A stretch of DNA of 64,000 nt from an uncultured Acidobacteriota bacterium. Its GTDB lineage: Bacteria; Acidobacteriota; UBA6911. This document shows, piece by piece, positions 1-13,128 of the stretch. A program made the translations under genes and the position numbers. Within the stretch, counting starts at the first letter, position 1. Each line of letters begins with the position of its first letter. A model generated the notes under the pieces. The model did not search any database. It had not been told where the DNA came from and saw nothing but the letters and a program-made list of their open reading frames with translations. Where the stretch lies: positions 256,001 to 320,000 of the forward strand of contig CAWEJX010000007.1 of assembly GCA_963809485.1 (NCBI GenBank), given 5' to 3'.

Positions 1-2
1 AG

Positions 3-1688
3 ATGTCGGACCAGGTTCTGGATGCCATGGATCTGGAGCGGGAGCGCGGCATCACCATTAAAGCGCACTCCGTCCGTCTGAATTACTGTGCCGCAAACGG
101 CGAGGACTATATCCTCAACCTGATCGACACGCCGGGGCACGTAGATTTCTCCTATGAAGTCTCCCGGAGCCTTTCAGCCTGCGAGGGCGCACTGCTCGTC
201 GTGGACGCTTCCCAGGGCGTCGAGGCTCAGACCCTCGCCAACACCTACCTGGCCCTGGATCACCACCTCGAGATCGTGCCCGTCATCAACAAAATCGATT
301 TGCCGGGCGCGGAAATCCCGCGCATCAGGGACCAGATAGAAAATATCATCGGGCTGGACGCCAAGGACGCCATTCTTGCCAGCGCCAAGGAGGGAATCGG
401 CACCGAAGAAATCCTTGAGGCGATCGTGCACCGGCTGCCTCCGCCGCAGGGTGAGTATGACCGGCCGCTGAAGGCTTTGATTTTCGACTCCTGGTTCGAT
501 TCCTATCGGGGAGTGATCGTGCAGGTGCGCGTCATCGACGGCACGCTGCGCAAGGGGCAGAAGATCCGGATGGTCGCAACCGCCCAGGTCTTCACCGTCG
601 AGCAGGTGGGCGTCCTCACCCCCAAGCTCCTGGAGGTGGAGGAGCTGTCGGTGGGGGAGGTGGGTTATGTGATCGCCAACATCAAGCGTGTCGCCGACAC
701 ACGCATCGGGGACACCGTCACGGAGGACGCCCGGCCGACGCCCGAGCCTTTCCCCGGATTCCAGGAAGTGAAGCCCATGGTTTTTGCGGGGCTCTACCCG
801 ACCGACAATGCTTACTATGAGGCTCTCCGCGACGCTCTCTCGAAGCTGCAGCTGAATGATTCGGCCTTTTATTATGAACCGGACACATCGGGCGCCCTGG
901 GATTCGGATTCCGCTGCGGCTTTCTCGGACTGCTGCACATGGAGATCGTGCAGGAACGCCTGGAGCGCGAATTCAACCTTTCATTGATCACTACGGCTCC
1001 GGGGGTGCGGTACCGTATTACGACGCACAAAGGCGAAACGTTTGAAATTCACAATCCCTCGAAGCTTCCGGAAGCAGGCGAGATCGCCAAATTCGAAGAG
1101 CCGATGATCAAGGCCATGATTCTCACCAACGACGAGTACGTCGGACCGATTCTCAAACTGGCCGAGGAAAAACGCGGAGTGCAGAAGGGCTTCGAATACA
1201 TCACGAAGAACCGGGTCCTGATCACCTACGAGCTCCCGCTGAACGAGATCGTCCTGGATTTTTACGACCGGATGAAATCGGCATCCAGAGGCTATGCCTC
1301 TCTGGACTACCATTTTTGCGGATACCAGGAATCCCGTCTGGTCCGGCTGGATATCCTGGTGTCCGGAGAGCCGGTGGATGCGCTCTCCCTGATTGTTCAT
1401 CAGGACACGTCCGTGGTTCGGGGGAGAGCCCTGGCAGCAAAAATGAAGGAGCTGATTCCCCGGCAAATGTTCGAGGTTGTCATACAGGCTGCCATCGGCA
1501 ACAAAATCCTGGCGCGTGAAGTGGTCCGGCCCATGCGGAAGAACGTGCTGGCAAAGTGCTACGGGGGCGACATCACGAGAAAAAGAAAGCTGCTGGAAAA
1601 ACAAAAGGAAGGCAAAAAGCGGATGAAGCGTCTGGGCAAGGTCGAAATTCCGCAGGAAGCGTTCCTGGCAATCCTAAAAGTGGAGTGA
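3..1688 (+). CDS. lepA: Elongation factor 4 (LepA), 5' end outside the window
   Basis: [24 protein letters not shown] GTPase motifs; C-terminal [25 protein letters not shown]; the P-loop-containing N-terminus is missing. Confidence 0.98.
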
Positions 1689-1808
1689 AGTCTAGCCGAG
1701 GAAAAGAAGCCGGGAAAAAAGGAATCATGAAGTCTGTACTTCAGTTTTAAACTGGGAACTCTGAACTGGAAACTGAATTTCTTGAACCATTCAGATATAC
1801 AATTTCCC

Positions 1809-1841
1809 AGGTAATTGACCGGCCAATCGCTGCCTATTTTT
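1809..1841. repeat. Left end of element: AGGTA direct repeat plus two inverted-repeat boxes
   Basis: AGGTA|ATTGACCGGCCAA|TC|GCTGCCTATTTTT; the inner box contains the recombinase stop codon. Confidence 0.8.
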
Positions 1842-2982
1842 CTTCTCCAGCCGATCCTGAAGGGTGGAGTTTTTTCAGTTTGCTTGACACCTTGGCAAGC
1901 CGATTGATGAGGCGCTGCATTGTAAGCTGTTGTTTTGAAGCGTTGAGGCCTCGCCGATTCATTTCGAGGAAGTGCATCGCATCGGCAATGCACTGGAGAG
2001 CACGGATATGAGGGTGTACGGATTGGTTACGGGGATTGCTGCGTTGCGGCAGCTGGTAGAGGTTGGCCAGGTTGGCTCGGGCCGAACTATATTCGCGTTG
2101 TAGATCTACCTGACTCACCTCTACATAACGCATTGTCATTTCGATTTTTGTATGTCCGAGGAGTGTTTTGACTGCAGGCAGGCTGGCGCCGCCGCGGAGC
2201 ATCTCGGTCGCAAAAGTATGTCTCATTTGATGCGTCGTGATTCGGGACGCACTGCAGTTTGCTTTTCGGGCCGCTTTCCTGATCATCGCGACCATTTGGC
2301 TATACGAAGGACGGGAGCCATCTTCGCGCATTAGCAAGAAGGTGGATAATTTTCTGGCCTTAGCCGGGGCTCGATTGCGCAAATCATCGAGGTGTTCAAT
2401 AAGACTACGGCTATGGGCGTCCAAGGGAACCAATCTTTCCGTATGCATCTTGCCGAGAGGGACGCGGATTGCCCACTGTTGATCGCCCAGATCCCGGAAG
2501 CAATCGACTGCGAGATTCAAACATTCACCAACGCGCATACCGGTGGCACGCATGAGAAGCAGCGCAGTTGCTTCAACGGTGCCTTTTTTGCGGAGTTCTT
2601 CGCAAATGAGGCGATCATCTTCGGGCGAGAGGGGCCGGGGAAGGTACTTGTCCAGGTGTGGGAAGTCTCGGCGAACGATGAGGTTTTCTCTTATTCGGTC
2701 TATTCCTTCATCGGCAAGGTCGCGAAGGCACTTGCGTAGCTCATAGAGTTGGTGGAGACGGGTGCAGGTTCGGGAGCTGGCCAAAGTTGAGATCCATCCG
2801 AGGATATGCGGATCCCGCCTGAGTTGGGAGAGCTTATGAATCTCGGGGTGGTTTTGTTTGAGGAAGCGCATGAAGCCATTCAAAGTGCTTCGATACCGAT
2901 ACATCGTGTTTGGCCTGTGAACAATAGCAAGACTCTGAAGATAGGAATCGAAGATCTGTTGAATAGTGCGCGGTTTACTCAT
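1834..2982 (-). CDS. Tyrosine recombinase (XerC/D-like) #2
   Basis: Catalytic set TGMRVGE, GK, HQMRH, LLGH, MTMRY; ATG at 2982 overlaps the upstream stop. Confidence 0.93.
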   Translation of the reverse strand: MSKPRTIQQIFDSYLQSLAIVHRPNTMYRYRSTLNGFMRFLKQNHPEIHKLSQLRRDPHILGWISTLASSRTCTRLHQLYELRKCLRDLADEGIDRIRENLIVRRDFPHLDKYLPRPLSPEDDRLICEELRKKGTVEATALLLMRATGMRVGECLNLAVDCFRDLGDQQWAIRVPLGKMHTERLVPLDAHSRSLIEHLDDLRNRAPAKARKLSTFLLMREDGSRPSYSQMVAMIRKAARKANCSASRITTHQMRHTFATEMLRGGASLPAVKTLLGHTKIEMTMRYVEVSQVDLQREYSSARANLANLYQLPQRSNPRNQSVHPHIRALQCIADAMHFLEMNRRGLNASKQQLTMQRLINRLAKVSSKLKKLHPSGSAGEEK

Positions 2983-4033
2983 CGAAGGAAGCACTCCGGA
3001 GTTGGGCCAACGCTTGCGATCGCTTTTCGACGGCGCGGTGATATTCCCGCCAGACATCCTGGGGAGACAATTCCACGTAGAGCATGGTCGTGTGAATCTG
3101 AGAATGACCCATGAGTCGCATCAGTGCGGGTACTGAAACGCCGGCACGGATCATGTCGGCACCGAAGGTGTGGCGGAACCGATGCGGGTGGGCGTTGATC
3201 GTTTGAGTCGCACGTCGATGGTGACGAAACAACGAACGCAGGCCGGCGGATGTCATCGGTTGGCCGCGCCGCCATCCCTTGAGAGAAAGAAACAGGAGGG
3301 GCGACCCGAAAGCAGGCCGTTCGAATTCGAGATAACGCCTAAGAACCCGAATGATCGCATCTGCCAATGGCAGAACCCGCTGTCTGTTTCCTTTGCCACG
3401 AACAAAGATCTGAGTCTCGGAAAGCCGCAAATCTTCGAGCCGGAGTTGGATCGTTTCATGGGAACGCAGGCCGTTAAAAAGCATCAATCCCACGAGACTG
3501 AGGTCACGGAAGGTGCGAAAGCTGGACCAGAAACGTGAAACTTCATCAGGCTGGAGGGGGATGACGACTTTTCGAGGTTGTCGTAACCGCAGTCCCGCGA
3601 TTGCGGTGCTGGGTTTTCCTATGCCCATTGGACTTCGTCTCTTGTATCGGGTTTGCACACTGGCGCGAGTTCTGGGGACTTCCTTCTGGTAGTAGAATCG
3701 GTACAGGGATCGGACAACCACCAAACGATGATTGACCGTAGGCGGCGACGGCTTGGGTTCGTTTTCAAGTTGGTATCGAACGTAATCGAGCAGACGAAGC
3801 TCGTTGAGAGTGGATAGACTCGGCCAGCGAGAACCGTGTAACCACCAACGGACGAAGTTCAACAGATCGAACCCATACGAGCGCAAGGAACGGACGGAAA
3901 GGTTGCGCAGGTACTGGGCATCCAGAAAATCATTGATGAAACGGACCGGCTGGTCCTTAGAATCCAAGAGTTGATAGGGAGACATGCCCGCAGGGCCGGA
4001 TGGGTAACGAATGAGATGAAAAGGCGGGGTCAT
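2975..4033 (-). CDS. Tyrosine recombinase (XerC/D-like) #1
   Basis: GLRSHE, GKG, HRFRH, LMGH, TTMLY; ATGA overlap with the primase stop; GGAGG upstream. Confidence 0.93.
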   Translation of the reverse strand: MTPPFHLIRYPSGPAGMSPYQLLDSKDQPVRFINDFLDAQYLRNLSVRSLRSYGFDLLNFVRWWLHGSRWPSLSTLNELRLLDYVRYQLENEPKPSPPTVNHRLVVVRSLYRFYYQKEVPRTRASVQTRYKRRSPMGIGKPSTAIAGLRLRQPRKVVIPLQPDEVSRFWSSFRTFRDLSLVGLMLFNGLRSHETIQLRLEDLRLSETQIFVRGKGNRQRVLPLADAIIRVLRRYLEFERPAFGSPLLFLSLKGWRRGQPMTSAGLRSLFRHHRRATQTINAHPHRFRHTFGADMIRAGVSVPALMRLMGHSQIHTTMLYVELSPQDVWREYHRAVEKRSQALAQLRSASFDE

Positions 4034-5037
4034 ACACATTGTGCTTCCTCCAGACATCTTGTGAAATCAGCAGCGGTGGCTCCGGAAACAAAGAAACTAT
4101 TGGGATCATGGTTTTCCGGAAGCGGTACGATCTTCGATTGCAGACCGGCCTCCCGGAGTTGCCGTGCCAGTTTCAAAGCAGCGCGTTGACCGGCAGCATT
4201 CGTATCCGAGTCAAAAGCAATGAAGATCTGTCTATTGAGATCGTCGCATAGTTGGGCAAACTGCTTGCCTGTCAGGTGGCAGCCGAGAGCGCTGGTTGTA
4301 TTGCGAAAGCCAGCCTGCCAGAGAACCGCAAGATCGAAAAGGCCTTCCACCAGGATAACGTTGGGAGCATTGTGAATCGACTCCCATGCGACCAGGCCGA
4401 TCCTAACACGAGGCAGAAATCGATGTGGCGGCGGGGGACCGATGCTGCGTCCGTACAGATTGACGATGCGGTTCTGATCGAGACAAGGAAAGACGATGCG
4501 GTGAAAGAAGGTGTCATGCCCCTTTTGATTTATCAATCCAAGATTCACGAGCCGGTCGTAATTGTGGCCGCATACCGATAACAGGTGCCCACGCAAACTG
4601 CCGCCTGGCGCATAGCCCAATCGAAGGTGACGTAATATCTCTGGATCCCGCAATCCGCGTTGGTGAAGATAGTTCATCGCTTCCTGGTGGTGCTGCAACT
4701 GATACTGGTAAAAAGCGACCGTATCGCGGAGGAGGTCGTCATCACCCCTGAGCTTGTCCCATTCTCCGGCCAGCCGTGCGACGCTATCGCGGAAAGAAAG
4801 GTTGAAGTAGACCTGGACGAAGCGAATCAAGTCGCCGCCATAGCCACAGCCATGGCAGTGAAAAAGATTTTTCTCGGCGTTGACATAGAACGACGGCTGG
4901 GTCTCGGAGTGCAGCGGGCACAATCCAACATATTCGTTCCCTGAACCCACAGGACGGCCAGTCCAATTGAGGCGTTTGAGATAATCCAACAGTGGAAGAT
5001 CGCGCTTAAGTTTTTCCACTTCCTTGCAGTTTGCCAT
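4030..5037 (-). CDS. DnaG-like primase (CHC2 zinc finger + TOPRIM), no C-terminal helicase-binding domain
   Basis: CPLH...CHGC zinc finger; VEGLFD and FDSD TOPRIM acidic motifs; DPN motif; about 335 aa. Confidence 0.92.
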   Translation of the reverse strand: MANCKEVEKLKRDLPLLDYLKRLNWTGRPVGSGNEYVGLCPLHSETQPSFYVNAEKNLFHCHGCGYGGDLIRFVQVYFNLSFRDSVARLAGEWDKLRGDDDLLRDTVAFYQYQLQHHQEAMNYLHQRGLRDPEILRHLRLGYAPGGSLRGHLLSVCGHNYDRLVNLGLINQKGHDTFFHRIVFPCLDQNRIVNLYGRSIGPPPPHRFLPRVRIGLVAWESIHNAPNVILVEGLFDLAVLWQAGFRNTTSALGCHLTGKQFAQLCDDLNRQIFIAFDSDTNAAGQRAALKLARQLREAGLQSKIVPLPENHDPNSFFVSGATAADFTRCLEEAQCV

Positions 5038-5420
5038 CAGAGCCTCCGGACGGGAACGCCTGTTCGGCCGCAAATGATGCAGGCGATACGTTCGAGAGGG
5101 TTTGCTCTCGCAGATCCGACGTTCCCTGACTTTGATGGATCGATCCTGACATTACTGTCTTGGCTTCTGGAACCCTGATACGTCACGCTTTTTTTATTGG
5201 ACTGGCGCAGACGATAGTTGCGCTGGTGGTCTCGATGGTCGAGTTTGCCTAAGGGACTTTGCCGGTAGCGTCTATTCGCTTCGCGCAGTTGGTGCCGGCG
5301 GGCGCGGTCCCGACATGCCTGACTGCAGTAGTGCTGTCCGCGATCGCAGTGACTGCAGATATGGAATATCTTGCCGCACCCCGCGGCATGGCAAGATCGT
5401 TGCCGGAGGATGAGTTCCAG
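5037..5420 (-). CDS. Cys-rich putative zinc-binding protein, 127 aa (not in ORF track; CTG start)
   Basis: Manual translation LELILRQRSCHAAGCGKIFHICSHCDRGQHYCSQACRDRARRHQLREANRRYRQ...VTYQGS...ACIICGRTGVPVRRL*; TGA overlaps the primase ATG; AAGGA about 10 nt upstream of CTG. Confidence 0.75.
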   Translation of the reverse strand: MELILRQRSCHAAGCGKIFHICSHCDRGQHYCSQACRDRARRHQLREANRRYRQSPLGKLDHRDHQRNYRLRQSNKKSVTYQGSRSQDSNVRIDPSKSGNVGSARANPLERIACIICGRTGVPVRRL

Positions 5421-5494
5421 GGGCCAATCGTCCTTTCCCGAAGGCGGGACTCGACAACGGCCCCCATGTCATGGCACGCTAAAGACGACTTTGG

Positions 5495-5562
5495 TTCTGG
5501 GAGCTTTAACCGGGCTCTTGGAATTTAGCCTCGATCGTTACAGCGGTCGGGGCTTTCTTTTT
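5495..5562 (+). terminator. Two hairpins plus U-tract on the strand antisense to the element genes
   Basis: AGCCTCGATCG...CGGTCGGGGCT followed by TTCTTTTT; stems need G-U pairs that exist only on the + strand. Confidence 0.55.
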
Positions 5563-5667
5563 CCGCCTTTCACGCCGCCACGATATCACCACCAGGGCTC
5601 AAGAAATCTATTGCAGTTACCCAGAAGCAAAGAACACGGCTGAATAAAAGAGAAACCAGCTGAAAGA

Positions 5668-5730
5668 AAAAATAGGCAGCCACTCCTGGGCTGGTTTAGA
5701 AAAAACGACATTTTGGCCGGTTAATAGGTA
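5668..5730. repeat. Right end of element: two inverted-repeat boxes plus AGGTA direct repeat
   Basis: AAAAATAGGCAGC (5668-5680), 32-nt spacer, TTGGCCGGTTAAT (5713-5725), AGGTA (5726-5730). Confidence 0.8.
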
Positions 5731-5863
5731 AGTATCTTTTACATGGTTTTTGATATTGTTATACCCTATACCGATGTCTGAACGCCGTTGGAGGCATTCG
5801 GGCGTGGCAGCTCAAATAAGATATAAGGACGGTCCTTCATCCGGCCGATCAGAAGGGCATTCC

Positions 5864-6268
5864 ATGGGGGAACCAAGGCATATGCGACCTAAATACCTCA
5901 TCCTGCGGGATTGCCAGGGCAAAGGGCTCTTTGGCTGTCTGTTGTCGCTTGTCCTGATGGGAGTGGCGATCTTCCTGGCTATCAAGCTCGGCCCCATGTA
6001 TTACGCGAACTACAACCTGGAAGCCGACGTCGAAACCGAAGCAAGCCGCGCAGGAGCCCGTTTCCTCGACAATGACACGATCATCAACGACATCCTGGTC
6101 ATGGCGAAAAAAAACGAAATTAGGCTCACGAAGGAAAACGTCACCGTGGAGCGTTTTGCCGGCCAGATCCACATCGAGATACGCTATGCCGTTCCGGCCG
6201 ATTTCTTGTTCTTCAAGCGGGACATGAATTTTGAAATATCGGCTTCGAGCTTCATCGGCACATTGTGA
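5864..6268 (+). CDS. DUF4845-like single-TM protein
   Basis: Pilin-like N-terminal hydrophobic segment (QGKGLFGCLLSLVLMGVAIFLAIKLGPMYY); size and lepA neighbourhood fit; start uncertain. Confidence 0.6.
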   Translation: MGEPRHMRPKYLILRDCQGKGLFGCLLSLVLMGVAIFLAIKLGPMYYANYNLEADVETEASRAGARFLDNDTIINDILVMAKKNEIRLTKENVTVERFAGQIHIEIRYAVPADFLFFKRDMNFEISASSFIGTL

Positions 6269-6356
6269 CGCTTCAGCCTCCCCGGCCATCGCCCGATTCT
6301 TGATACATACTTAAGCAACCGCGTATCCAAGGAATTTACGAAAAGCTCTTACGAAC

Positions 6357-6437
6357 CGCAGAATGTCGAATAATGAATGATGAATTTCGAAGTCCGGCCC
6401 AAACTTCTGCGGTTCGACATTCGTCATTCGATATTCG
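6357..6437. repeat. Inverted pair of degenerate heptamer arrays
   Basis: GAATGTCGAATAATGAATGATGAATTTCGAAGT facing ACTTCTGCGGTTCGACATTCGTCATTCGATATTCG, between convergent genes. Confidence 0.6.
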
Positions 6438-6480
6438 TATTTGCTGCCTCGCCGGCAGAACCGGGGGATAGCCCTGCATA

Positions 6481-7156
6481 TTAGGTAGCATACACAACCT
6501 CAAGACCCATCATGTCGGCCAGCTCCTGCATCTCCCGGGTATAATCCCCGTATACCATGGATAGATGGCTTCCAAAATCGCTCAGCTTACGCAAGCATTC
6601 CCGGGCATCAGGAACTTTTAAATGGGCTGCCAGCGAACAACCGATCAGGGTGCCTTTGTTGAAGCCGGTGCAGCCAATAACTTCGCCCTTTGCGAGATAC
6701 ATCTTTGTCCGGCTCCAGCCTGGCCAGCCGTTCCGGATGAATCCAGAAGTCTTCGGAATACTCCAGGAGCACCGGGTCCAGCAACTGCATATCCGGGCCC
6801 AGGTTTTCTCTGAGTTCTTTTGCAAATTCCTTCACACCGGTTTCCGCGTCGGCCCTCTCCTGCTCCGGTGTCCTGCCGTATGCCAGGCTCCACCATGCCG
6901 CCACGTCGATCATGTTTTCAGTCTTAGCCGACTTCGGCCTTTCTCCGACTGAAGGCCGGCACGGCCCTAAACAAACATCGGTATGGATGATGGGAGAATA
7001 GACCGGTTTGACGGCAAGTTTGATATCCAGAGGACGGTCTATCGGTCCTTTGGCAAATTCAGTCCGCTGCGGAGGATCCTTCGCATTCGCAGAATTTGAA
7101 AGCACCAGGGATCCTGCAGCAACGCCGACGCTTCCCAGAAAATCCCGTCTTTTCAT
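6481..7156 (-). pseudogene. Tat-exported L-fucose/sugar isomerase-like protein, internally deleted
   Basis: Twin-arginine signal MKRRDFL; C-terminal HLSMVYGDY...ADMMGLEV motif is in another frame, joined near 6703. Confidence 0.55.
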
Positions 7157-7218
7157 GATTCATTCTCCAAGTGAGGTTTGGAAAAGCTGATCGTAAATTC
7201 TCGTGCCAATGAGTCCTG

Positions 7219-7995
7219 CTACTGCTTGACGGCGGTATACGTGGTGGTGGCGCCTTGCACCTTGTTCTCCCTCCTGATAGACATGGTCTTCCCGTCAGCG
7301 GACACTGTATCGTGAATCACGCTCACAATCTTCCCGTCCTGTTTAATGGTTGAAACGATCGAGCGGTCGTCTGCCTTTGTCAGCGAGACCGTAATGCCGG
7401 GAGGAACCCCTTTGATCGGATAGTCCTTGCCGTCAAATTTTACATCGAACAATTCGCCGGTGGAATCCGAGTACATCAAGCCATCGCCTGTGCTTTTAAA
7501 CGTGAATGTCAGTGCGTTTTCTGAAGCCTCAACCTTCTGTATGCGCCAGGAGCCTGAGGCAGCATGCGATCCCGATGGACCGGCGGCGACGCGGATATAA
7601 CTTTCCTTCGCCGTAATCGGCTGCTTGCTTGCAAGAGGGTACTCGGTGTACTCAAGCGTGGTGGTTTTGCCGTCTGGAGAAACGGCGCTCCTGGACGACT
7701 CGACAACTCTCCCATCCTTTTTGCCAACGGTCTCCACTATTCTGTCGTTTACGACCTTGACAGCCAACGTGTCGAGGTCTTTGGATCCGGGCACAGCCTG
7801 GTCTGTGCCGTCAGCTTTGACGTTGATCTTCGGCACCGCGCTGGGGATTTGAAACCTTCCGTCCTGCAGCACGATAACCGTAGGCTTGTCCGGGAATTTG
7901 GCCGTGTTCAGGTCAACCCTCCAGGTGCCGTCAAACGGACTTTGTGCTGCCCAGGCGAAGACCGGCAGCAGCATTGAAAGCCATAATCTCTTCAT
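7219..7995 (-). CDS. Secreted beta-rich protein with two internal repeats (lipocalin-like)
   Basis: Signal peptide MKRLWLSMLLPVFAWA; GTW/GSW and VSPDGKT/VSADGKT repeated. Confidence 0.75.
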   Translation of the reverse strand: MKRLWLSMLLPVFAWAAQSPFDGTWRVDLNTAKFPDKPTVIVLQDGRFQIPSAVPKINVKADGTDQAVPGSKDLDTLAVKVVNDRIVETVGKKDGRVVESSRSAVSPDGKTTTLEYTEYPLASKQPITAKESYIRVAAGPSGSHAASGSWRIQKVEASENALTFTFKSTGDGLMYSDSTGELFDVKFDGKDYPIKGVPPGITVSLTKADDRSIVSTIKQDGKIVSVIHDTVSADGKTMSIRRENKVQGATTTYTAVKQ

Positions 7996-8033
7996 TTTCT
8001 TTCCCCTTTCTGAGTGAAATGTGTTTTTTGAGA

Positions 8034-8261
8034 CTACGGGATCGTAATAAACGGACATCCTGGGACAGAGTCGATCAGCGCCGACATAAGGCGCAGTACC
8101 AGGACAGTCCCGCAAACCAGAACGATAAAACATGCGACGATGAACCAAAGGAGAAAGGCGTTCAGTATCCAGGCTGCCAGGCGTCTGGCATCAGGCGCTT
8201 GTATCTGCCAGCGCTGCCTCAGCGCCTCGCCGATCGGGATCAGATCTCCTTCATCCGGCAT
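8034..8261 (-). CDS. Small membrane protein
   Basis: Long hydrophobic segment; co-oriented with neighbours. Confidence 0.4.
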   Translation of the reverse strand: MPDEGDLIPIGEALRQRWQIQAPDARRLAAWILNAFLLWFIVACFIVLVCGTVLVLRLMSALIDSVPGCPFITIP

Positions 8262-8311
8262 GCGATCTCCAGAGTTGTTTCACAGACGCTGTGTAAAAAC
8301 CGTAGAGCCGA

Positions 8312-8512
8312 TCATTCTTCGGGCTCCTCTTCCGGTCCGTTCCGTTTTTTGTCTATCCTGGCGAGGATGCCCCAGAGTTCCTCGATTGTGTCAAACGCCC
8401 GCTTCCCTTCCGTGCCTACCTGTTCGACCGTTCCCACAAACCGGTGGGCACTGCGCCTGTTATGGCGGTAGATCCGGACAATGTAATCGTCCGAGAAAGC
8501 CGATCGCGTCAT
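8312..8512 (-). CDS. Small hypothetical protein downstream of the BTAD regulator
   Basis: 66 aa, YIVRIYR...VGTVE...AFDTIEELWGIL; co-oriented directly after the regulator. Confidence 0.6.
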   Translation of the reverse strand: MTRSAFSDDYIVRIYRHNRRSAHRFVGTVEQVGTEGKRAFDTIEELWGILARIDKKRNGPEEEPEE

Positions 8513-8547
8513 GGGGCTAATAAAAACCCGGATGACTCACAGATGGC

Positions 8548-11500
8548 TCACAGATTGGAGGAAGCGATGAAATTTTCTTTGATTTTTTTGTAGAGCTTCT
8601 CGGTTCCCGGGGAGGGAGTAATTCCGAGTACGAAGGAAAGGGTTTGCTTGCAGCGCATGTACATCGACAGGGCTTCGCTTTTCTGGCCGAGGTGAAGATG
8701 GCACTCCATGGCGTGCCGGTAGAGTTCCTCGGCCAGATTATCCAGGTCCAGGCCCTTTTGATAGCAGTCAAGGGCGTCCTGCCACCTGCCGGTCTGCTCG
8801 TACAGGCCGCCCAGCCACTTGATGTTTCCAAGGAACTTCGTCCTCAAACGCTCCCGCAGCGATAGAGCCCAGGGTTCATCGGTCTCGCCGGCCAGGAAGT
8901 GTCCGGCGTAAATCCCCATGGCCCTCTGAGCCGCATGAAAGGCGCGTTCGGTTTCCCTTTCAGTTTTCGCAAGATCGACGAACCTTTCGAAGACCCGTAG
9001 ATCGACCCAGCACTGCCGGTCATCCAAAGTGAGGCGGCCGTCGCGCAGCTGCAGAGCCTGCGGACATCCCAGAAGGGCCCGCAAGCGCTGCAGGTTCACC
9101 TCAAAGGAATGATGCGCCGCATCCCCCTCGGCCTCGGGCCACAGGATATCGGCAATCGCCTCCTCCCTCACACCTTTCCCGCCGAGAGCAAGCAGGACCT
9201 TCAGGAGGTCGAGCGGCTTCTTCCTGGCCTTCCGCGAAAACTCGATGGCTTCCCCATCCCGATGGATTTCGAATCGTCCAAGAGTGTAGATCCTGATCGC
9301 CCAAGGCCACTTGTCAATTTCCAGAGGGGGCGTGTCGGGCAAAAGATGGAGGGTCCGGACAAGTTCCTGAACATACGGCACTTCGATATCATGTTCCAGC
9401 GCCTTTGCGCACAAGCGCGCGAGCACGGCCGGCTGCCAATGGAGCATGATCGTCTTGTACTGATGCTCCACTCCTATTTTCATCGCAGACCGGAGCGCCC
9501 CCACCGCCCGCTTTTCTTTCTCTGCATCGAACAGAAAGTGCGCTTCATCGAGCAGGGAAAAATAGGCGAAATAGGGAGAGCTTCCCATTTTGGAAATAAT
9601 CCGTTTGGTCTTCGAGACCTGGAGAAGGGCCGCCTCATGGTCCCCTTTCGCATGCCGGATTTTGGCGATGAGCTGGCGAATGAGGATTTCGGGGATTGGA
9701 GTAGAGCATTCCTGGCTCATCTGCAGCGCTTTCTCAGCAAGAGCGAGGGCATGATGCAATTTGCCGCCAAGGAAGTGAATCCATCCCGAAATGTATGGAT
9801 GCATATTGGACATGGCGCGCGGCGTTCTAGAGGCGATGGCTTCCATCTTTTGAAGGAACTGCTCAGCCAGTGCCGTATCGTTCATGGACAGAGCCGCGGA
9901 AGACGCCAGTGCGTAGACAAAAGCATCCTGTATATGAATCCCATTCTTTCCCGCCAGTTCGATCACTTCTCCGGCCAAAACAATTGCGGACTGAAGCTCG
10001 GAGGACTGAAACAGCTTCGGCCTCATTTCCGTGACTTTCCAGACAATCAAGGACAGGGGGGTGGCGGAAATGGAGAGCGTCATCGCTTTCGCCTGCTTCA
10101 CCAGAGGGTGCATATTGCCCAAATCCCCGAGCCAGAAGAAGTACGTGACGCTATTTGAGATCGCCTGAAGCCGCAGGCTGTCATCACCTATTTCCGACAG
10201 CAGCCCCACAGCCCGATCCAGCCACTTCCGCACATTCGGGCGGGGCGGAATGGCCCAGGTAAAAAGCCCGACCACGCTTGCCGCTACCCGGGCCTCAATC
10301 TCAGGAGAAGGGAATACCGGGTGGTCGCGAAGCCGGGTCTCGAACCATTCAAACCACGAGGTCAGAGGGGTGAAGTTGTCCCACGCGAGAAGTATGCTGT
10401 CGACCGCGCCGGACCAGGCGAGAAGCGTTCCGGTCACGTCGTTTTGAGCCTCGAAAAGATGAAAGGCCTTTTCGAAACAGGCCGTGCTTTGCAGCGGGCT
10501 TTGGGGCATGAAGCACACGGCCCTCCAGTAGAGAAGCCAGGGAGATGTACTCAGGCCTTCAGGAGGCATTGCCGCCAGCCATTTTTCGACGACCTTGTAC
10601 CTGCCCTGAGAGATAAGCGCCGGCGCCTGAGCAAGGATGAAACGGGCCAGGTTGTTCCAATCCGTTGTCTGGATAAGAAGCTCCGCCGCACCCTCGGTAT
10701 CTCCCGACGACTCGAGCAGGCGCGCCGTCTTGGCCAAAATGGCCGTAATCTGAGCTGGCGTCATTTCGCTTCTGGCGCGGCTTACAAGAAATTCCCTCAA
10801 GAGCTGATGGTAACGAAAGACCGGTTCCGGAGAATGGTCCCGTTCGGTGAAATAGCTGTTTCGCGTCAGCCGGGAAAGAATAGCGGCTGCATTCGAAAGG
10901 CCGGTGAGTTCTTTGGCCATGCTCACTGTGATTCTGGGCAGGAAAGCCGTTTTGAGCAGGAACACTTGCAGTTCCCTGTCGATTCGGGCGAAGAACTGAG
11001 TTCCAAAATAGTCGATAATATCTTCGCGGCTCAACTTGCCGGGTTCGTCACGGAAGATTTGCACTTTCATGCTCTCCAGCATGAGCACCAATCCCGCAAC
11101 CCATCCATCTGCATCCAGGTGGAGTCGCCTTATGTTTTCCAGGGGAATCTCCCGTCCCCTCAAACGTGCGATTCCCGCCGTTTCCTCGATGGTGAGGCGG
11201 AGATCGTCCCACCCCAGCAGGTTCATGGCGCCGTTCGCCCGCAAGCGGGTGAGGGCTTGGGGAAAGGCATGACGGCTGATCACAATTATATTGATCCCCT
11301 CCGGTATGGCTTCGAACGCCTTGCCCATCACTTCGTGAAGCTGGGAATCATCGGACGTCGAGTGATAGTTGTCGAAAACCAGAAGGTAGCCGTGCTTAAG
11401 CCTGCCGAAAAGGTTCTCAAAAAAACGCAGCGCAAAAACCGGGACACCCCCCTGCAAATATTCCGGAGTGAGCAGCGGCATCGGTTTCCGGATTCTGGGT

Positions 11501-11838
11501 GCAGCCTTCTTCCCCGCCAGTCCCAAATAATAAAAGAAAGTGGCGGGGTCGCCGTCTCCTTCGTCCATCCGGTACCAGAGATACCGAGCCTTGCGTTCCT
11601 TGAGATAGCTCGCGATGAGCGTCGTTTTGCCTGAACCTGCAGGGCCGGAAACCCAGATCAGAGGCCTGTTTCTTTTTTCGTCAAGGGCGCGAAAAAGCCT
11701 CTCGCGGGGGAAAAATGCCTCTATCCGGGGAAGCGTGACTTTTGCCAGAGAAAGGTCGTTCACCCGGTAGACTTCGCCGATGCTTCTCCGGCCGAGTCGC
11801 TCATCGACGCGATAATGACCCATTTTCCTGCCGGTCAT
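8548..11838 (-). CDS. MalT-like STAND ATPase/TPR transcriptional regulator with C-terminal wHTH-BTAD
   Basis: Walker A GPAGSGKTT; DGDPATFF, GWVAGL, FRYHQL MalT motifs; C-terminal TLGRF...LWPE...RLR...GHFLAG (SARP/BTAD). Confidence 0.9.
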   Translation of the reverse strand: MTGRKMGHYRVDERLGRRSIGEVYRVNDLSLAKVTLPRIEAFFPRERLFRALDEKRNRPLIWVSGPAGSGKTTLIASYLKERKARYLWYRMDEGDGDPATFFYYLGLAGKKAAPRIRKPMPLLTPEYLQGGVPVFALRFFENLFGRLKHGYLLVFDNYHSTSDDSQLHEVMGKAFEAIPEGINIIVISRHAFPQALTRLRANGAMNLLGWDDLRLTIEETAGIARLRGREIPLENIRRLHLDADGWVAGLVLMLESMKVQIFRDEPGKLSREDIIDYFGTQFFARIDRELQVFLLKTAFLPRITVSMAKELTGLSNAAAILSRLTRNSYFTERDHSPEPVFRYHQLLREFLVSRARSEMTPAQITAILAKTARLLESSGDTEGAAELLIQTTDWNNLARFILAQAPALISQGRYKVVEKWLAAMPPEGLSTSPWLLYWRAVCFMPQSPLQSTACFEKAFHLFEAQNDVTGTLLAWSGAVDSILLAWDNFTPLTSWFEWFETRLRDHPVFPSPEIEARVAASVVGLFTWAIPPRPNVRKWLDRAVGLLSEIGDDSLRLQAISNSVTYFFWLGDLGNMHPLVKQAKAMTLSISATPLSLIVWKVTEMRPKLFQSSELQSAIVLAGEVIELAGKNGIHIQDAFVYALASSAALSMNDTALAEQFLQKMEAIASRTPRAMSNMHPYISGWIHFLGGKLHHALALAEKALQMSQECSTPIPEILIRQLIAKIRHAKGDHEAALLQVSKTKRIISKMGSSPYFAYFSLLDEAHFLFDAEKEKRAVGALRSAMKIGVEHQYKTIMLHWQPAVLARLCAKALEHDIEVPYVQELVRTLHLLPDTPPLEIDKWPWAIRIYTLGRFEIHRDGEAIEFSRKARKKPLDLLKVLLALGGKGVREEAIADILWPEAEGDAAHHSFEVNLQRLRALLGCPQALQLRDGRLTLDDRQCWVDLRVFERFVDLAKTERETERAFHAAQRAMGIYAGHFLAGETDEPWALSLRERLRTKFLGNIKWLGGLYEQTGRWQDALDCYQKGLDLDNLAEELYRHAMECHLHLGQKSEALSMYMRCKQTLSFVLGITPSPGTEKLYKKIKENFIASSNL

Positions 11839-12213
11839 GGGGGTCACTCCCTCCAAGCCGCCATTCTGAACAAAGCGATAAGACGAAAATTGAAATTGGG
11901 TCGATTATAACGCCCATGAATTCACAATCAACCCGAATCCGCTATCCGGATCCCGACTCGCCCGCAAATCGGGACTCACACGGCGCTTCCCGCCTGCATC
12001 TCCAGCCGCCTTTTCGCATAAGCCCCGGATGTCACGCCAACCGGAATTACCCGAACCTGATTCCGGCCCTCAGTGGCGCAGAAAACGCTGCGCACCAAAT
12101 CCATAGCCCGGCTTTTGCCGACCCAGATTAGAGGGCGTGGACCTGGGCAAGGCCCGGCGCGGCGACGATGCAAAGCCGCTTGTCTTGATTGGATGTTCCT
12201 GCAGGGCTAAGAT

Positions 12214-13128
12214 GTGAGTATGGAGGTCTCCCACAGAAGGGCATTCCCGGTATTGCGGGCGCGGGTACTGTACGCGAAACCATTACCCAGAGTTTGCCTG
12301 GCCTTGCTTGCTGTTTTTGCGGCGCTGGTTTGCGCCGGGTGCCCGCCCAAGGTAGCCCGGGTCAAGGTGTCGAGCGAGGACATCATCCGCTCCAACGAAG
12401 CTTCCAGGGAAGGTGACGTCGCTTTTGCGCGCAAGGATTTTTACGCCGCGCTGATCAAGTATCTCGAAGCCAGCCGGTTGAATCCCAATAATGAATTCAT
12501 CTTCAACCGGGTGGGAATCACCTATTCCCAGTTGCACTACTATCAGGAAGCGAGCGTCGCCTTTCAGCGCTCGATGGCGCTCAATCTCAAATATCCCTAT
12601 TCCGTCAACAACCTCGGTTCCGTCTATTTCGCTCTCAAAGATCTCAAGAAGGCGGAGAAGTATTTCAGAAAAGCCGTCCGCATGAAGGAAGACGAGCCTT
12701 CTTTCCATATGAACCTGGGATCGCTGTACTTTGAGAGGAGGAAGTTCGACCTCGCGATGGCCGCGTGGCAGAGAGGCCTGACCCTGGACCCCGAGATTTT
12801 GACCAAAAACAGCAGCGTCAGCCTGATAGGAGGCAGCACTCCATCCAAGGAGAGGAGCTATTATCTGGCCCGCCTGTTCGCTTCCGCGGGCAACGTGACC
12901 AGGGCCATAGAAAGCCTCCAGCAGGCGTTTACCGACGGATGGTCCGAAATTGCCGCTATTGAAAAGCAGCCCGACTTCGATCGCATACGCAAGGATGAGC
13001 GGTTCGTCGAGTTTCTTAAAAACCTCGAGGTCCTGATCAGACTTAGGGAGAGCGGCGCATCCGGCGATTCGCAAGGCGTTGCGCTCGAAAAGCGGGCGCC
13101 TGACGGCGGCGCGCAGAAACCGCAATAG
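12214..13128 (+). CDS. TPR-repeat lipoprotein
   Basis: Lipobox-like VCAGC; TPR motifs (NNLGSVY, MNLGSLY); C-terminal DFDRIRKDERF. Confidence 0.8.
   Translation: MSMEVSHRRAFPVLRARVLYAKPLPRVCLALLAVFAALVCAGCPPKVARVKVSSEDIIRSNEASREGDVAFARKDFYAALIKYLEASRLNPNNEFIFNRVGITYSQLHYYQEASVAFQRSMALNLKYPYSVNNLGSVYFALKDLKKAEKYFRKAVRMKEDEPSFHMNLGSLYFERRKFDLAMAAWQRGLTLDPEILTKNSSVSLIGGSTPSKERSYYLARLFASAGNVTRAIESLQQAFTDGWSEIAAIEKQPDFDRIRKDERFVEFLKNLEVLIRLRESGASGDSQGVALEKRAPDGGAQKPQ

Follow-up and report, generated by a model that had tools for sequence, protein, structure and literature searches.

Positions 1809 to 5730 of a 64,000-nucleotide stretch of DNA from an uncultured Acidobacteriota bacterium (here, the window) hold a DnaG-type primase gene, two tyrosine recombinase genes and a small cysteine-rich (Cys-rich) open frame between inverted repeats, and raise the question of what kind of mobile element encodes its own primase in less than 4 kilobases (kb). 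An initial annotation, made from the sequence alone, had described the locus as a compact integrative element in which a XerC/D-like pair excises a circle and the primase primes its replication or copy-out. Here, we report a computational analysis of this element, its relatives and its insertion sites. The reading we favour is that it is an active representative of a widespread family of tyrosine-recombinase transposons that are about 4 kb long, carry no cargo and have a DnaG-type primase of their own; taken as a whole, with the mechanistic steps proposed below included, we place the probability of this explanation at roughly 0.55. Our confidence is high for the part that consists of the mobility of the element, the conserved gene order and ends, the Tn554-type recombinase pair, the target preference and the carried spacer.

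Organisation of the element

The features of the locus, in window coordinates, are as follows.

1714-1808, no strand assigned: 3' part of a dispersed repeat of about 75-95 base pairs (bp), copies of which end ...TTTYC(C/G)AG(G)TAAG; the element lies at its end
1809-1813: AGGTA on the recombinase B side, directly outside the left repeat
1814-1826: left terminal inverted repeat ATTGACCGGCCAA, recombinase B end
1829-1841: subterminal 13-bp repeat GCTGCCTATTTTT, 2 bp inward of the left terminal repeat
1834-2982, minus strand: recombinase B (TnpB-like, 382 amino acids (aa)), ATG at 2982, frame open up to 3057 (407 aa at most); Pfam Phage_integrase 6e-31
2975-4033, minus strand: recombinase A (TnpA-like, 352 aa), ATG at 4033, frame open up to 4057; Pfam Phage_integrase 2.3e-31
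4030-5037, minus strand: DnaG-type primase (335 aa), open frame 4030-5073; Pfam Zn_ribbon_DnaG 5e-20, DNAG_N 5e-10, Toprim_2 2e-16
5040-5468, minus strand: Cys-rich open frame (CxxxxC...CxxC...YCSxxC...CxxC), whose stop at 5037-5039 overlaps the primase ATG (TGATG)
5420-5423, minus strand: run of C (GGGG on the plus strand), at which a -1 shift would join the frame of the ATG at 5467 to the Cys-rich frame
5668-5680: partner of the subterminal 13-bp repeat, 32 bp inward of the right terminal repeat
5713-5725: right terminal inverted repeat TTGGCCGGTTAAT, primase end
5726-5730: AGGTA on the primase side, directly outside the right repeat

Reading of positions 1600-6000 together with a repeat search bore out the initial description of the unit. 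The span from the left to the right repeat (1814-5725) measures 3,912 bp, the terminal repeats are complementary at 12 of 13 positions, and all coding capacity lies on the minus strand in four frames, in the order Cys-rich frame (which has no canonical start codon), primase, recombinase A and recombinase B. Both terminal repeats were recovered by the repeat search, the right one also by a motif search across the family, and the left motif is kept in all 49 family loci in which two ends were located. The subterminal repeats, from the same repeat search, form a perfect inverted match, and the one at 1829-1841 is a candidate accessory recombinase-binding site. Stop and start codons overlap by 1 nucleotide (nt) between the Cys-rich frame and the primase (TGATG), by 4 nt between the primase and recombinase A (ATGA) and by 8 nt between recombinases A and B (ATGAGTAA), which suggests that the four genes may form a single translationally coupled operon. 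The start codons of A (ATG 4033) and B (ATG 2982) were themselves placed from such overlaps with the preceding gene, and are to be taken as probable.

As the initial annotation had stated, the list of open reading frames (ORFs) and the Pfam matches of the 3.9-kb element include no helicase, capsid or conjugation gene; there is also no ORF between recombinase B and the element end. A promoter and terminator scan of the element gave counts at the level of shuffled sequences (4 vs 2.6; 6 vs 4.4), and a search of window positions 1-9000 against Rfam returned 0 families.

Mobility in the source genome and genus

In the window, the element lies between lepA (3-1688) and a DUF4845-like gene (5750-6268, a weak match). 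A DNA search of the window's own assembly (G000) recovered an extra copy with different flanks, as had been anticipated: this second copy, on another contig (G000:C4:215000-218919), is 100% identical to the first, and its flanking sequence and genes are unrelated to those of the window copy. The predicted empty site with a single AGGTA exists in the closest relative genome, G006, which has a 95% identical lepA. There, positions 106-213 of locus L018 correspond to window 1714-1814 and positions 208-351 to window 5726-5870; a single AGGTAA is common to both matches, and the site reads ...TTTCCC-AGGTA-AG.... When the 30 genomes of the genus were screened with a primase family profile (E <= 1e-80), G000, with its two copies, was the only carrier (0/29 others). 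The identical copies, the G006 empty site and the absence across the genus argue together that the element is a recent arrival which has since moved once within the G000 genome.

Joined ends were sought as a circle junction (right repeat, 9-17 nt, left repeat), with 0 occurrences in the window and all family loci and 0 in a pattern scan of a viral contig collection. Four public sequencing runs, none of them listed as RNA, contain small parts of the window (shares 0.05-0.15), all as Logan contigs. Over window positions 1500-6000 these yielded only fragments of 150-240 nt which hold no joint at either element end and speak neither for nor against a circle or expression; one run had an unrelated 348-nt skip.

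Two other short, dispersed sequences lie to the right of copy 2: a segment of about 72 nt (L002 5461-5532) with 85-88% conservation across five more genomes of the genus, and a repeat of about 40 nt (L002 5545-5586) that recurs many times in G000 and G006. No tRNA was found near copy 2 (L002).

A family of elements with shared gene order and ends

The family was surveyed with one genome per species, and 80 of 261 related stretches were kept. Primase relatives measure 329-376 aa; the 120 matches listed all have E <= 1e-123 and 57-100% identity and lie mostly on contigs of 1-5 kb, while the primase total of 6,013 matches at E <= 0.001 includes ordinary DnaG proteins. Assemblies labelled as Acidobacteriota account for 70 of the 80 loci, and the other ten carry the labels Planctomycetota, Nitrospirota, Verrucomicrobiota, Xanthobacteraceae, Hyphomicrobiales, Methylomirabilota, Acidimicrobiia (three loci) and Aestuariivirga. 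By tblastn with the window proteins, the order primase-A-B is intact in 59/80 loci, and a further eight loci are cut by a contig end. The plasmid collection holds no close relatives (primase <=32.7% and recombinases <=38.5% identity).

Both ends could be located in 49 loci by a simple motif search (ACCGGCCAA / TTGGCCGGT), giving lengths of 3,777-4,310 bp with a median of 3,961 bp. In all 49, the primase-side end reads (A/T)TTAACCGGCCAA and the recombinase-side end TTGGCCGGT(C/T)AA. Copies within the same assembly share 98.2-100% identity over 3.97-4.0 kb and then diverge suddenly; besides G000, such multi-copy sets occur in six other assemblies (L084/85/86, L059/62/63, L069/70, L101/102, L050/53, L041/42, L073/87). 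The homologous gene sets share these ends and are compact, and they do not lie within prophages or integrative and conjugative elements (ICEs). By these comparisons the element belongs to a large and widespread family of cargo-free transposons of about 4 kb that is abundant in soil Acidobacteriota assemblies.

Several individual loci have features of their own. L034 and L060 hold a family-type primase (55% identity) with 2.9-3.8 kb of downstream sequence and no adjoining recombinases, and may represent a different context or decayed copies. In L080 and L082, two copies of one family member on a single contig, recombinase A is interrupted at 8869-12304 of both loci by a RIT element of 3.4 kb, whose three recombinase genes overlap and encode 412, 317 and 358 aa; the RIT segments are 99.8% identical and in opposite orientation, which suggests either an in-place inversion or two insertions at one point. 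L073 and L074 (one record) hold two family-member copies, at about 1248-5230 and 6087-10020, inverted tail to tail and about 850 bp apart.

The recombinases as a Tn554-type pair

The R-K-H-R-H-Y residues reported for both recombinases are indeed in place: alignments to solved XerC-like, XerD and XerA chains position R, K, HxxR, H and Y in A and in B. Alignments to 4a8e and 9i5v chain 14 give the corresponding motifs as GLRSHE/GKGNRQR/HRFRH/GHS..LY for A and GMRVGE/GKMHTER/HQMRH/GHT..RY for B, and recombinase A matched a XerC-like solved chain at 1.6e-23. The best matches of A and B in the plasmid collection are adjacent recombinase pairs on actinobacterial plasmids, a kind of pair which Van Houdt et al. 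2012 class as Tn554-related in the available text (PMC3414803).

Four sets were used for comparison, namely an actinobacterial pair (L103), a locus in which a DUF6262 gene follows a second TnpB-like gene (L116), a RIT trio (L115) and the genuine Tn554 of the S. aureus plasmid pWBG4 (L117; tnpA 361 aa, tnpB 630 aa, DUF6262 tnpC, then ant(9)-Ia and erm(A)). In BLAST comparisons, recombinase A scored 171 bits against the actinobacterial TnpA-like protein (35% identity over 331 aa), 81 bits against Tn554 TnpA and 36-54 bits against TnpB proteins. Recombinase B, in turn, scored 115-129 bits against actinobacterial TnpB-like proteins (30-32% over 326-336 aa, an alignment that covers residues 228-555 of these 651-655-aa proteins), 73 bits against Tn554 TnpB and 55-66 bits against TnpA proteins. 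Identity of A and B to the Tn554 proteins was 26-27%, and neither exceeded 63 bits against the RIT proteins (RitA, RitB, RitC).

A maximum-likelihood tree was built from 31 sequences, with nine family members each of A and B (the window and eight hand-picked loci across the subfamilies), three TnpB proteins trimmed of their N-terminal extension, and host XerC and XerD. In this tree, B joins the TnpB clade, inclusive of the true Tn554 TnpB, with support of 100/99, A joins the actinobacterial TnpA with support of 100/98, and RitA, RitB, RitC and Xer stand apart from both. On the reciprocal BLAST matches (A with TnpA, B with TnpB) and the tree, a generic, unaffiliated XerC/D pair is ruled out, and this part of the initial annotation is replaced: A and B are very probably the two partners of a Tn554-type TnpA/TnpB module, in the same gene order as in Tn554.

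The ratio of nonsynonymous to synonymous substitution rates (dN/dS) was computed for all four genes between the window and five to seven relatives of 73-85% protein identity; it is 0.06-0.19 for recombinase A and 0.13-0.16 for recombinase B.

Other recombinase-bearing sequences were seen in G000. Seven XerD-like matches lie within 6.7 kb on both strands at G000:C20:1019918-1026575, perhaps a pair of RIT-like trios or some other multi-recombinase element. At G000:C7:196565-197344 and G000:C9:142242-143021, on different contigs, XerD-like open frames of 298 aa have equal scores and may be part of a further repeated element with recombinase genes.

Target site and carried spacer

The AGGTA on either side of the element had been read as a direct repeat of 5 bp. 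The pentamer does flank copy 1 on both sides, but it is not a duplication: at copy 2 the recombinase side reads TTGTA and the primase side AGGTA(AG), so that AGGTAAG is identical at the primase side of the two genomic copies despite their different flanks. Among the seven multi-copy sets, the primase-side 5-mer is constant in all seven and the recombinase-side 5-mer differs in five. Copy 2 and these sets rule out a classical target-site duplication.

The two 5-mers of a locus are nevertheless related. Across the 49 loci with both ends, in which at least L070 and L074 probably have mis-called ends, the pair agrees at five of five positions in 19, at four in 13, at three in 15 and at two in 2. 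The mean match is 4.0, compared to 1.83 for randomly re-paired ends (maximum 2.41 in 2,000 shuffles), and mismatches fall mostly at the last two positions. The simplest reading is that the primase-side 5-mer would be the spacer of the joined ends and travels with the element, and that the recombinase-side 5-mer would be the target's own, at a site chosen for its likeness to the spacer. Because the primase-side 5-mer travels, the inserted DNA is taken to be 1814-5730 (3,917 bp), which agrees with the G006 comparison. The available text of PMC10214605 gives a similar arrangement for SE and Tn554-related elements, with the target sequence at the recombinase-proximal end and the carried sequence at the other. 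Its reference list includes Murphy and Lofdahl 1984, according to the title of which Tn554 makes no target duplication.

The target TTTYC(C/G)-AGGTA-AGT(A/T)T is found in one orientation at the window copy, L105 and L023, which come from different assemblies and share 77-83% primase identity. In all likelihood, then, the element inserts in a single orientation at the short preferred sequence TTTYCS-AGGTA-AGTWT.

The window copy lies at the end of a dispersed repeat, for which window 1714-1808 gave some 20 additional matches in G000 and others in relatives of the genus; eight copies were aligned. The repeat (...ACTGGGAACTCTGAACTGGAAACTGAATTTCTT..ATTCAGATATACAATTTTCCGAGTAAG), perhaps a promoter, leader or REP-like sequence, usually stands just upstream of genes, and its 3' end is the preferred target of the element; copies include G000:C7:384716-384789, C6:16012-16072 and C20:257415-257481, among others. 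At G000:C19:41168-41906 there is an array of 25-30-nt matches to the repeat core (window ~1746-1775) in alternating orientation, spaced by about 35-130 bp.

The primase

The 335-aa primase (called protein P0001) consists of a CHC2 zinc ribbon, an N-terminal catalytic subdomain and a Toprim domain. Aquifex DnaG (2au3) aligned to its residues 6-316 at 1.1e-36, and its score against TIGR01391 is 181 bits, for a cut-off of 283.6. In both the Pfam matches and the 2au3 alignment the protein ends at residue 335, just past Toprim, and the C-terminal domain that binds the helicase (DnaB) is absent, as the initial annotation had it. Across 16 family primases of 59-83% identity, the zinc ligands C40, H43, C61 and C64, the Toprim glutamate E231 and the DxD residues D276 and D278 are invariant in 16/16, and the dN/dS of the gene is 0.08-0.13. 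The invariance of the Toprim residues and CHC2 ligands argues that the primase keeps its catalytic activity.

The Cys-rich frame and the upstream accessory gene

Neither Pfam nor NCBIfam holds a family for the Cys-rich protein, and gene callers almost never predict it, with seven called homologues in the protein collection. In an AlphaFold 2 model (mean predicted local distance difference test score 70.9), residues 20-90 form a confidently predicted zinc ribbon and helical hairpin, for which Foldseek found no match in the PDB at E <= 0.001. Relatives of the protein align with invariant Cys residues, and from LELIL onward the dN/dS of the frame is 0.19-0.30; it is evidently under purifying selection in spite of having no canonical start.

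An ATG at 5467 opens MGAVVESRLRERTIGP (MGAVVESRL...), one base off the register of the Cys-rich frame. The stretch that follows this ATG is in frame in L023, L108 and L024 and offset in the window, L105 and L107, by independent indels that are all of the -1 class; an ATG initiator at this place is present only in the window, L023 and L026. Positions 5235-5476 recur identically, with the 4-base C-run, in one Logan contig of public run X2, which may share its sample with the assembly. The gene may be expressed through an unconventional start or a -1 frameshift. The region 5420-5480, upstream of the zinc-finger codons, has nucleotide conservation equal to that of the coding genes whatever the frame (window, L023, L024, L105, L107, L108), and contains a possible UUCG-loop hairpin (by eye only) and a GATTGGCC motif that resembles the terminal repeat; it could be a cis-acting site and not coding sequence.

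The accessory gene upstream of the primase differs between subfamilies. It is the Cys-rich gene in the window, L023, L024, L026, L036, L105, L107 and L108, and encodes a DUF6431 zinc protein (1e-10) in the larger subfamily; no profile similarity was detectable between the two proteins (hhalign probability 8.7%).

Proposed mechanism and alternative explanations

We propose that the TnpA-like and TnpB-like recombinases would bind the terminal repeats of 13 bp, possibly along with the subterminal ones, and synapse the ends to form a circular or figure-eight intermediate with a junction of repeat, 5-bp spacer and repeat, which they would then recombine with a target resembling the spacer. These recombinase steps, taken jointly, we consider probable. 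The primase would prime DNA synthesis on the intermediate and the donor copy would be kept, in a copy-out route such as has been proposed for SE elements and suspected for Tn554; this version, which draws on the gene content and on the presence of two copies, is put forward tentatively. Since the element has no helicase-binding domain, initiator, helicase or polymerase, the primase most likely supplies primers on a form of DNA that the host replisome does not prime itself. Candidate substrates would be a single-stranded bridge or circle left by one-strand exchange, as proposed for SE elements in the available text of PMC10214605, or an excised circle. The Cys-rich zinc protein, or the DUF6431 protein in the main subfamily, may take the place of TnpC as an accessory factor for DNA binding or directionality. 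A bolder version is that the family represents the first bacterial tyrosine-recombinase transposon with its own priming enzyme, with one strand pair exchanged and an obligatorily replicative copy-out/paste-in cycle, which at present we hold to be doubtful.

A number of observations count against this explanation or parts of it. On mobility, the two copies in G000 could also come from cut-and-paste across a replication fork, and no empty site was obtained for copy 2, G006 matching its right flank only from 102 nt outward with different adjacent sequence. The putative copy-out role of the primase is argued from gene content and the two copies. As to the Tn554 affiliation, the true Tn554 TnpA lies on a long branch of unsettled place in the tree and does not group specifically with recombinase A, recombinase B is without the N-terminal extension of about 225 aa of Tn554-type TnpB, and the element has no TnpC/DUF6262 gene, Tn554 TnpC matching none of its proteins. 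The Cys-rich frame has no in-frame ATG, GTG or TTG in the window, and its N-terminal part is out of frame. Finally, 13/80 family loci are disrupted or incomplete, comprising 11 split or partial loci that keep the gene order (two of them with a 3.4-kb insertion in A) and two with a primase and no recombinases, and the family is rare per genome, being found in at least 2/401 genomes of an even sample of the phylum with five candidates scored per genome.

The alternative that survives best is that the element is an integrative mini-replicon, cut out as a double-stranded circle that persists as a transient small plasmid, with the primase as its initiator, before re-integration. A conserved primase under purifying selection would fit such a life cycle, as would the many relatives on contigs of 2-5 kb, and the available preprint text on tycheposons (10.1101/2020.12.28.424599) offers a precedent in which an integrase is paired with an optional replication module. 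Short contigs are, however, the usual assembly outcome of repeats; those with two ends all have chromosomal flanks, none is a permuted circle, and there are 0 junctions in the family loci. As no iterons were seen in arrays within the element, and as it has neither a Rep or initiator gene nor one for a helicase or for partition, we consider this alternative unlikely.

Plasmid-borne primases make the complementary strand after conjugation, and the primase of the element could likewise serve horizontal transfer, by complementary-strand synthesis after single-stranded entry into a new cell. The patchy spread of the element (1/30 genomes in the genus) and the 10/80 loci in bins other than Acidobacteriota, three of which (L084-L086) lie on contigs of 167-449 kb, point to frequent transfer. 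The bin labels of short contigs are unreliable, however, and the 3.9 kb hold no relaxase, oriT-like feature or coupling protein, so that the element would depend fully on other vehicles; we regard this role as improbable.

Improbable to a similar degree is that the primase and the zinc protein are structural and not enzymatic, acting as DNA-binding stand-ins for the TnpB N-terminal extension and for TnpC. It would account for a recombinase B that is about 225 residues shorter at its N-terminus than TnpB, for the missing TnpC and for the swap of the accessory gene between subfamilies (Cys-rich vs DUF6431), but it is at odds with the invariance of E231, D276, D278 and the CHC2 ligands in 16/16 primases. 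Integrase-plus-primase pairs are common in satellites and islands, but that the element decayed from a larger prophage, satellite or ICE and has fortuitous ends is scarcely credible given a unit of about 3.96 kb with the same ends in 49 loci, identical copies within genomes, a precise empty site and no extra genes inside.

Relation to known systems

The transposon family proposed here is closest to Tn554 and the actinobacterial tnpA-tnpB(-tnpC) elements. Like these, it has two adjacent, co-oriented recombinases, a short TnpA-like one followed by a TnpB-like one, with intact catalytic motifs; it inserts at preferred sites; and one of its junctions has a carried sequence of 5-6 bp and the other the target's sequence, which is the behaviour given for Tn554 in the available text of PMC10214605. 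It differs in the size of B (382 aa vs 630-655 aa), in the lack of a TnpC/DUF6262 gene (some actinobacterial relatives of Tn554 are also without TnpC, according to the available text of PMC3414803), in the primase and zinc-protein genes upstream in the same putative operon, in the clear and conserved 13-bp terminal inverted repeats, in the lack of cargo and in its hosts, which are mainly metagenome-assembled genomes of Acidobacteriota. The element therefore has the recombinase pair and junctions of the Tn554 group but not its TnpB size or TnpC, and adds a primase, a zinc-protein gene and clear repeats.

The SE elements, as described in the available text of PMC10214605, likewise encode a pair of catalytic tyrosine recombinases and end in imperfect inverted repeats of 13-19 bp; at each new insertion one end receives a copy of a short spacer, and the route proposed for them is a copy-out that needs replication. 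They are set apart by gene content, no SE sequence having been compared: their core genes are intA, tfp, intB and srap, with cargo, and the main text of that paper nowhere mentions a 'primase'. The element lacks both this set and the ginA-D set of the GInts (two catalytic recombinases, a non-catalytic recombinase-fold protein and a small protein), and by gene content it was therefore assigned to neither group.

RIT elements are likewise described as compact and cargo-free, with overlapping tyrosine-recombinase genes between inverted repeats, but they have three recombinases (ritA, ritB, ritC) and no primase. Membership was rejected on the two recombinases and primase of the element, on scores of no more than 63 bits to the RIT trio and on the separate clades. 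A BIM, which consists of one recombinase and a conserved protein with an SMC domain in the available text of PMC3414803, is also rejected; the element has no such second protein. The tycheposons of Prochlorococcus (preprint 10.1101/2020.12.28.424599), compared here by description and not by sequence, resemble the element in combining a tyrosine recombinase with an optional small replication module in which a primase is possible. They differ in a single integrase of its own lineage, tRNA-gene targets, cargo or packaging genes and the lack of such terminal repeats; the element, with two recombinases, no tRNA at either copy and no cargo, is not one of them. Compared with bacterial DnaG, the primase has the same CHC2 zinc ribbon, N-terminal catalytic subdomain and Toprim with Glu and DxD, and differs in its length of 335 aa and in lacking the helicase-binding C-terminal domain.

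The initial annotation had suggested an unnamed new class. In full-text literature other than supplements and subscription journals (the latter including the original Tn554 papers and, on RITs, Ricker et al. 2013), no account was found of a primase joined to two tyrosine recombinases, and to that extent the suggestion stands; such elements could be present unnoticed in the datasets of PMC8138268 or among the Tn554-like elements and RITs listed for PMC3414803. The recombinase module belongs to the known Tn554 type, however, and the class is thus not wholly new.

Significance

The family is widespread, compact and previously unnoticed. It probably fragments assemblies into contigs of about 4 kb and is annotated merely as 'DNA primase' and 'integrase'; annotation would gain from a family name and a rule for finding the ends. 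The way in which Tn554, SE elements, GInts and RITs move is an open question. According to the available text of the 2023 paper PMC10214605, movement has not been tested for GInts, RITs or Tn554-related elements, and for SE elements copy-out is no more than likely. A four-gene, cargo-free unit with sharp ends, known targets and many natural variants bears on this question, and the addition of a primase to a Tn554-related unit points to DNA synthesis within the transposition cycle, with the primase active site as a handle on it. If obligatory copy-out proves true, the family would be a natural minimal system for dissecting the Tn554/SE mechanism, and its small size and short, specific target could make the element an insertion tool for bacteria that are hard to manipulate.

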